Below, one piece after another: positions 61,201 to 64,000 of a stretch of 64,000 nucleotides of DNA (positions are counted from its first letter, which is position 1; each line of letters begins with the position of its first letter). This stretch comes from Escherichia coli (lineage in GTDB: Bacteria > Pseudomonadota > Gammaproteobacteria > Enterobacterales > Enterobacteriaceae): assembly GCF_041886205.1 (NCBI RefSeq), contig NZ_CP169030.1. One strand, given 5' to 3'. Position numbers: made by a program.

Positions 61201-64000
61201 CAGGAATGATAATGTCATCATTAGCTAGTAGAAAACGTATTTCCTCTTGCTCACAGTCTAACACATATATATCCGGCAACACATCGGTCTTCACCACCTG
61301 ACAAGGGCGCTCATCAATCTCCCAGTTATAATCAGTGCGAAAACACTCATGCTTTCGAAATAACGTTTCCAGCGCCCACTTGAAGTGGGCGCTATCTACA
61401 TGCTGAGAAAAAATGCATGTAAAATGCTCATGGTAGTTACTCCTTTTCTTATCCTTTAAGGAATGGAATAAAAACCCCTGTTGACTTGGTGTTAGCGGTA
61501 ACTGCTTACGTGTGTCCATCTTATTACATGGAAAATCTCCAGAGGTATTATCCATAACCATCACCTTATTATCGGATTTATAGATTATATAACATGATTA
61601 TTCTAAATGGCACACCTATCCTCAACTATAGTTTTTTATTGCGTATTCATATAATCATATTGCATTTTATCACTTACAGGAATATCCCCAAAAAATCCTT
61701 ATATTCTGATTACATGTTTTTCTTCAATGAATTAGATTCTGTCTGTAAGCAAAAACATGTAAGTCATGCAGTACATACATGATGTAGCGGGTATGAATTG
61801 ATACAGCCACCACATAGAAAATAATGCGTAATTCCCATTTACATAAAAACCGTTGTATTGTAAATTCCTCTTAAATATTGCCAAAACAACAGATACACAG
61901 ATACACAGATACACAGATACACAGATACACAGATACACAGATACACAGATACACAGATACACAGATACACAGATACACAGATACACAGATACACAGATAC
62001 ACAGATACACAGATACCATTCAGGATGGGGGGAAACATGGATAAGTTCAAAGAAAAAAACCCGTTATCTCTGCGTGAAAGACAAGTATTGCGCATGCTGG
62101 CACAAGGTGATGAGTACTCTCAAATATCACATAATCTTAACATATCAATAAACACAGTAAAGTTTCATGTGAAAAACATCAAACATAAAATACAAGCTCG
62201 GAATACGAATCACGCTATACACATTGCTAACAGGAATGAGATTATCTAAATGAGGATTGATATATTAATTGGACATACTAGTTTTTTTCATCAAACCAGT
62301 AGAGATAACTTCCTTCACTATCTCAATGAGGAAGAAATAAAACGCTATGATCAGTTTCATTTTGTGAGTGATAAAGAACTCTATATTTTAAGCCGTATCC
62401 TGCTCAAAACAGCACTAAAAAGATATCAACCTGATGTCTCATTACAATCATGGCAATTTAGTACGTGCAAATATGGCAAACCATTTATAGTTTTTCCTCA
62501 GTTGGCAAAAAAGATTTTTTTTAACCTTTCCCATACTATAGATACAGTAGCCGTTGCTATTAGTTCTCACTGCGAGCTTGGTGTCGATATTGAACAAATA
62601 AGAGATTTAGACAACTCTTATCTGAATATCAGTCAGCATTTTTTTACTCCACAGGAAGCTACTAACATAGATTCACTTCCTCGTTATGAAGGTCAATTAC
62701 TTTTTTGGAAAATGTGGACGCTCAAAGAAGCTTACATCAAATATCGAGGTAAAGGCCTATCTTTAGGACTGGATTGTATTGAATTTCATTTAACAAATAA
62801 AAAACTAACTTCAAAACATAGAGGTTCACCTGTTTATTTCTCTCAATGGAAAATATGTAACTCATTTCTCGCATTAGCCTCTCCACTCATCACCCCTAAA
62901 ATAACTATTGAACTATTTCCTATGCAGTCCCAACTTTATCACCACGACTATCAGCTAATTCATTCGTCAAATGGGCAGAATTGAATCGCCACGGATAATC
63001 TAGACACTTCTGAGCCGTCGATAATATTGATTTTCATATTCCGTCGGTGGCATCTGATCACTCGAACCATGCCGACGCTTACTGTTATAAAACATTTCGA
63101 TGTAATCAAAAATATCGCTGCGAGCTTCTTCCCGCGTTCCATAGATCTTTTTCTTTATCCGTTCACGCTTCAGCAACTGGAAAAAGCTTTCTGCAACCGC
63201 ATTATCGTGGCAGTTACCGCGACGGCTCATGCTGCTACGATAATGCCTGCGTGGAAAGCTCCTTTCATTCACTGAAAGTGGAATGTCTCCATGGAGAATA
63301 CTTTATCAGCCGGGAAATAATGCGGGCAACGGTGTTTAATTATATCGAATGTGATTACAATCTCTGGCGACGGCACAGTTGGTGTGGCGGTCTCAGTCCG
63401 GAACAATTTGAAAACCAGAACCTCGCTTAGAGCAGTGTCCATATTACGAGGGTAGGATCAGTCGTTTCTTTCGCGGTAACTTTATATGATCGCTGTGTAC
63501 CTGCATCGAGAGAAGAAATCCAGGATGTATTCAACACTGAGTTCACAAGCTCTGTAGCTATTAAGTTAGTATTATTTACGTTTACGATACATGTTATTAT
63601 CGCAGGATCTTTATCTTGGTAGTGATACTGCGAGTGGATACACCCCCACTCAGTATCTTCTATAACTATGGCTTTTGGTTCTTCAGGCATCATACCTTCC
63701 ATAACACGTTCTTGATGGATACGTAACTTGTAGTACTTCTCTGGAGATGAAGAAATTTCAACGAGTACAGATTGTAGATGTACGAAGCCTAGAAATTTAA
63801 AACACTCGGATTTTGTAGAGGATTTTAATGATAAAGTCCAGATAACAAACACGTTATTGGAACCATCACCATAATTTTTAGTGTCAATCTTATCTACCAG
63901 CTCCTCGTTGATTAACATAGACTGATTTAGCAACTTCCGCTTCACGCCCTGAGCGGACTGTTATCGCTCTTTAGACACAGTTCCACTAGGGGGGAGGATC

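Follow-up and report, generated by a model that had tools for sequence, protein, structure and literature searches.

Which gene, if any, occupies the AT-rich open reading frame (ORF) at the right end of the colibactin (pks) island, and where did this sequence come from? The window, that is, the whole stretch of 64,000 nucleotides of Escherichia coli contig NZ_CP169030.1 analyzed here, has the clbA side of the island at its right end, where clbB (51935–61564, minus strand) is followed by an octamer repeat array, clbR, clbA (62250–62984), IS3-family remnants and the ORF. A sequence-only reading had placed a 172-aa ORF at 63427–63945, beyond the IS remnants, and had given no strand. We find the same open frame on the minus strand, with 172 codons from a GTG start to a TAA stop, and rve_2/rve_3 matches confirm that IS3-family remnants lie between clbA and the ORF. 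A stretch of at least 172 open codons occurs in 2 of 5000 mononucleotide shuffles of 63427–64000, so chance is an unlikely explanation of its length. PGAP begins this frame at an ATG at 63918 and lists it, in some E. coli genomes, as the 163-aa hypothetical protein WP_001560582.1. The GC content of the ORF is 38.2%, compared with 54.3% for clbP–clbB; the neighboring clbA and clbR have 34% and are more AT-rich than the ORF. Among the clb genes, the proposed contrast in composition therefore applies to the large synthase genes only and does not extend to clbA and clbR. As set out below, the ORF is very probably a pseudogene relic consisting of a promoter-proximal leader and the first 77–78 codons of hamA. 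As aligned, it reads as a composite rather than a gene, made of three pieces: the leader, the 5′ part of hamA and an IS3 inverted repeat in antisense.

The middle piece identifies the parent. A protein search covering 5.8 billion proteins returned E. coli fragments together with a set of proteins of 226–243 aa. The latter align solely to the second half of the ORF and do so via their own N-termini, and ORF residues 86–162 show 74–85% identity to the N-terminus of the 243-aa proteins. The best intact match is P0167 of Citrobacter koseri (243 aa), whose residues 1–77 are identical to ORF residues 86–162 at 76 of 77 positions (99%). In DNA sequence, locus L022 of C. koseri matches 63459–64000 with 97.6% identity, and the homology ends at 63459, which is the end of the IS3 sequence. 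The remnant at 63459–63690 (minus strand) thus holds the native ATG (63690–63688) and codons 1–77/78 of a 243-codon gene for a HamA-like nuclease. The ORF had been described as an orphan without a placeable motif, a description that no longer applies, since residues 86–162 correspond to residues 1–77 of a HamA-type nuclease and the ORF is in this part a fragment of a characterized kind of protein. It is not the antisense strand of a known gene, except for its last ~34 nt, which lie over the IS3 end.

To place the parent protein, we compared its family with HamA in sequence, fold and gene context. Clustering at 50% leaves 212 representatives of the 243-aa family, all of ~230–250 aa, and Asp136, Glu150 and Lys152 (D136, E150 and K152) are invariant in 90 relatives. 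The AF2 model of the 243-aa protein is confident (pLDDT 92.3, pTM 0.89), Foldseek ranks HamA first with this model, and the family shows the HamA fold (DUF1837), a PD-(D/E)xK core with HamB-binding insertions. PF08878, the Pfam HamA family, is the one most often matched among the members (5 of 90, best 1.1e-5), and 9 of the 14 PADLOC families matched by members are HamA models. The Pfam and PADLOC HamA profiles give no usable direct match for the ORF, P0008, P0009 or P0167; a PDB sequence search, with either the single sequence or a 90-sequence profile, did not find HamA, which was found by fold comparison alone. Because the close relatives lack a direct profile match, membership in HamA rests on fold, context and transitive matches. 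Regarding context, the downstream gene in intact loci encodes a DEAD-box helicase of 758–763 aa, and this gene overlaps hamA by a few bases. It was seen in all intact loci whose downstream sequence reaches far enough, and the two helicases scanned against PADLOC HamB matched at 8.3e-58 and 8.3e-57. On the modeled fold and this gene pair, the parent of the ORF is a divergent two-gene Hachiman anti-phage system, composed of the HamA nuclease and the HamB helicase. HamA is a D-E(x)K effector nuclease that is restrained by the HamB helicase and freed when HamB meets damaged DNA or ssDNA ends (PMC12278908); by analogy, the intact cassette would work like Hachiman. The separate origin from the clb genes that had been suggested for the ORF finds support here, since the ORF is the remnant of a defense cassette whose intact relatives have 33–37% GC, and IS remnants separate it from clbA.

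The family differs from the characterized members. HamA of ECOR31 (DUF1837, PF08878; HamAB complex PDB 8VX9/8VXY; PMC12278908) shares only ~7–10% sequence identity with the family described here, the close relatives of which get no direct Pfam or PADLOC match. AbpA/AbpB is the type I Hachiman of E. coli K-12 (PDB 8ZUE; PMC11914072), and in AbpA, which has 531 aa, a Cap4-like nuclease domain is added at the N-terminus and the HamA-like domain is inactive (PMC12278908), whereas the present family is single-domain with an intact motif. The HamA of this sub-family is thus missed by the Pfam and PADLOC profiles although its HamB is recognized, and such systems may be undercounted by tools that need both HamA and HamB matches.

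Compared with ECOR31 HamA, the window copy consists of residues 1–77 only. It stops at HamA residue 77/78, within the long helix 63–88 of the AF2 model, so that the catalytic D136, E150 and K152 are deleted and no D...E-x-K motif is left. Likewise, hamB, which in the two-gene system is an adjacent, co-oriented gene for an SF2 Ski2-like helicase, is absent from the window, and IS3 remnants and clbA stand in its place. We infer that the remnant cannot act as a Hachiman system, because two thirds of HamA, including the D...ExK residues, and the helicase partner are gone. The window copy is a dead member of Hachiman, and the kind of system to which its parent belongs was already known.

The breakpoint itself coincides with an insertion sequence. 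The tail of the ORF, PTLVIWTLL (codons 164–172), and its stop (63427–63456, minus strand) are an antisense reading of the right inverted repeat of an IS3-like element. The 3′ end of this element occupies 63230–63461 on the plus strand and consists of the C-terminal part of orfB and the right inverted repeat ...GGGTAGGATCA, and its outer end abuts hamA codon 77/78. The rve_2 and rve_3 matches reach 3.5e-18, and the DDE C-terminus is followed by a terminal inverted repeat ending in ...CA, as in the IS3 family. Many plasmids carry IS3 copies that match the orfB C-terminus and the right inverted repeat, but the window keeps only ~230 bp of the element, and no target-site duplication can be scored because its other end is gone. 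Plasmid IS3 copies match 63400–63460/61 at up to 100% and none extends farther; the apparent 'plasmid' matches of the ORF region in E. coli and PLSDB were accordingly set aside, as they cover the IS3 end only. A fragment of a second IS3-family transposase gene lies in the opposite orientation at 63000–63229 (minus strand), and 179 bp of it (63051–63229) have no counterpart in CFT073 or BCE049. The IS3-like block is contiguous with E. coli pks islands. Between clbA and the remnant, the IS spacer (62985–63461) measures only 443 bp here, compared with 1472 or 2953 bp in other pks islands. IS1351 and IS1400 are the names given to IS3-family elements of the pks island (PMC11707995). In other hosts, a 5′-truncated IS3-family transposase gene lies ~175–200 nt upstream of the intact cassette and adjoins its leader (L006/L007 7188–7826; L010 5380–5991); therefore, IS3-family elements recur at both edges of the cassette.

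The upstream half of the ORF is less straightforward. A conserved segment of ~195 nt directly upstream of hamA (63691–63885, minus strand) is in frame as ORF codons ~21–85, and the remaining 63886–64000 (minus strand) is a shared flank, island right-end sequence that includes the GTG and ATG starts of the ORF and continues out of the window to a 16-bp repeat. Judging from the alignments, codons 1–85 are probably an untranslated leader whose openness is incidental. An alternative is that HamA of the pks/C. koseri/Dickeya sub-lineage is a longer protein of ~317–356 aa, with an N-terminal extension of ~75–110 residues, and that the ORF represents its first ~160 codons. The frame is indeed open through this segment in the window, in E. 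coli pks islands, in C. koseri L022/L023, in L015 and in Dickeya; a 3-nt insertion in L015 keeps the frame, and some annotations call proteins of 317, 345 or 356 aa (345/356 aa in C. koseri and Dickeya). In the window, no stop interrupts the 84 codons that precede the first ATG of an adjacent pair (ATGATG), a degree of openness matched in just 29 of 20000 shuffles. However, the open copies are at least 96% identical and amount to one observation, and over the conserved 195 nt the depletion of stops is modest (P about 0.01, post hoc). Among seven more divergent intact loci, the segment retains 70–89% identity while nothing farther upstream aligns, and in all seven the hamA frame is broken by stops or frameshifts. 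The codon positions tell the same way: variable sites number 37/62, 27/61 and 40/63 at the first, second and third positions of the leader, with no third-position excess, compared with 31/83, 12/83 and 60/83 in the adjacent coding part. In addition, the wider family is 230–250 aa long, relatives at ~50% protein identity have no such leader, and AF2 gives the extension a pLDDT of 40–59, compared with at least 90 in the body, on an alignment that is shallow over the extension. The only good Shine–Dalgarno sequence read in the DNA (GGAAGG) sits before the ATG at 63690. We therefore regard the longer protein as unlikely, though it deserves more weight than the other alternatives considered below; if it were true, the ORF would still be a truncated hamA, with protein instead of leader as its N-terminal half.

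With an untranslated leader as the preferred reading, the frame is long because the leader of this sub-lineage happens to lack an in-frame stop and because nine codons run into the IS3 inverted repeat. Gene callers give the ORF 87, 163 or 172 aa, or nothing, and the 87-aa product (P0172), which starts at the native ATG, has exactly the expected length. In an enterobacterial sub-clade (L003, L005, L006, L009–L011 and L013), the leader block is as conserved as coding sequence, and it holds a near-invariant TTTGTTATCTGGAC(A/T)TTATCATTAAAATCC and a TA(C/T)AAT box. The latter is a promoter candidate by visual inspection only, and no σ70 consensus promoter was found in 63400–64000. The leader gives nothing at E ≤ 1 against Rfam, its RNAalifold consensus is weak (−6.6 kcal/mol, with an unfavorable covariation term), and no small conserved upstream ORF was found in the other frames or on the other strand.

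The ORF lies inside the pks island, between clbA and the tRNA-Asn direct repeat, and the context beyond the window end, which the sequence-only reading had noted as missing, could be recovered from other genomes. The direct repeat CCAGTCAGAGGAGCCA is found at L002 6735–6750 and L001 6937–6952, equivalent to 64154–64169, or ~154 nt past the window end. The arrangement clbB–clbR–clbA–IS–remnant–flank recurs in L024–L027, from E. coli and other large enterobacterial chromosomes, and pks islands with the ORF are found in E. coli as well as in other Enterobacteriaceae (the latter with genomes of about 5.3–5.4 Mb). Of 5426 complete E. coli genomes, 278 contain at least 80% of 63420–64000. CFT073, BCE049 and the window share an identical, uninterrupted IS3/hamA junction, so the truncation is older than the spread of the island. 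An exact-match scan of species-representative genomes for this junction gave no match, and a scan of genomes for the leader pattern gave only a chance match in a MAG and L015.

This distribution bears on the possibility that the ORF is a self-standing protein gene of the pks island, as its PGAP annotation as a 163-aa hypothetical protein would have it. The exact 163-aa product is recorded on 579 contigs, as 'MULTISPECIES hypothetical protein', the ORF is annotated in some genomes, and 'a hypothetical protein gene' is counted in the island backbone (PMC11707995). On the other hand, the ORF is a composite of leader, 5′ hamA and antisense IS3 repeat, and it is no better conserved than the remainder of the island, which spread recently. 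Many E. coli copies also carry a nonsense mutation or later IS insertions. In the CFT073-type allele (L001), which most E. coli copies share, TGG is changed to TGA at the equivalent of 63520, which gives W142* in the ORF and W57* in HamA and cuts the frame to 141 codons; because of this shortening, the ORF goes without a PGAP annotation in CFT073, Nissle 1917 and others. IS2, IS1B and ISVsa5 have inserted within the remnant in single strains, and these insertions are tolerated. A genuine orphan gene is thus highly improbable.

Equally far-fetched is a reading in which the relic has been co-opted, with the surviving promoter and leader driving antisense transcription into the IS remnants and clbA, or with the 77-residue HamA fragment serving as a decoy that binds HamB-type helicases. 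The leader is intact and points at clbA, 443 nt away, and residues 30–63 of HamA form one of the HamB interfaces in ECOR31 (PMC12278908), the equivalent N-terminal helices of which are kept by the remnant in the model. Against this reading stand the nonsense and IS-insertion alleles of the remnant, which are common, the failure to find a σ70 consensus promoter and a spacer that varies from 443 to 2953 bp between islands. It is accordingly very doubtful that the relic persists in nearly all pks islands through antisense control of clbA, the phosphopantetheinyl transferase gene, or as a stub that interferes with the Hachiman system of the host or of competing elements.

Returning to the pseudogene relic, the intact counterpart in C. 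koseri shows what the right end of the island may once have carried. There, an intact hamA–hamB pair occupies the same place in the same orientation, 474 nt inside the tRNA-Asn direct repeat, compared with 463 nt from the repeat to the hamA ATG in pks islands. The C. koseri cassette (L022/L023; P0167) shows the 97.6% DNA identity over the whole stretch that begins at the direct repeat, includes the leader and ends at hamA codon 77, and between L022 and E. coli pks islands an identity of 96–98% continues outward to the 16-bp repeat. Beyond codon 77 the two part: the C. koseri cassette goes on with full hamA, hamB, a SIR2–HerA system, ArdC and a type IV secretion system (T4SS) coupling protein, whereas the window goes on with IS3 remnants and clbA. 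In L022, the SIR2–HerA pair lies directly past the intact hamAB, followed by ArdC and the T4SS coupling protein (13416–16336), and the profile matches are 1e-168 for HerA and 2e-51 for SIR2. From its gene content, the attR end of the C. koseri element is a small defense island, and these genes form the defense cargo that an integrative or conjugative element carries at its end.

The attR-proximal ~0.7 kb of the pks island is thus 96–98% identical to the end of a C. koseri element with intact Hachiman and SIR2–HerA. This likeness suggests that the clb cluster settled in an element that originally carried phage defense as its cargo at that end, and that IS3-family elements made the join. In the order of events that we infer, an ancestral integrative element would have carried hamA–hamB beside the tRNA-Asn attachment repeat, as C. 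koseri still does, and an IS3-family element would have inserted at hamA codon 77/78. An IS-associated rearrangement may then have taken out the remaining part of hamA, the whole of hamB and anything past it, with the outcome that the clbA side of the colibactin cluster was joined to the IS remnants.

Our literature search found no paper naming both 'pks island' and 'Hachiman'. The 'hypothetical protein' in hundreds of pks-positive genomes should be labeled a hamA pseudogene fragment. The value of the assignment lies in this annotation fix and in a clue to the ancestry of the island; it leaves knowledge of colibactin and of the Hachiman mechanism unchanged.

Further observations concern related loci and the far side of the window. 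Intact cassettes occur elsewhere in four E. coli genomes, for example in a dusC defense island. The intact pair with its leader spans L009 8196–11200 in E. coli LR-29-1 and L022 10001–13002 in C. koseri. L015 (NZ_KN046818.1, labeled Klebsiella pneumoniae ATCC 13883) is not a pks island but holds an intact C. koseri-type locus; over 4.2 kb, in which the core genes cbl and ldtA lie, its identity to the C. koseri locus is 98.3%, so that either the locus is shared or the species label of the record needs checking. Upstream of the clb cluster, 4231–11111 carries a 994-aa Tn3-family TnEc1 transposase on the minus strand; next come ICE genes (traD coupling protein, TIGR03747 membrane protein) and an ORF in which DUF4400 is joined to a fragment of a group II intron RT/maturase. 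This arrangement is found in no PLSDB plasmid. Lastly, 1–4198 is 99.9% identical to an F-like plasmid backbone (ccdA, ccdB, a site-specific integrase/resolvase, the KAP NTPase pifA and pifC); therefore, this pks copy does not lie in the canonical asnW–integrase setting on that side.
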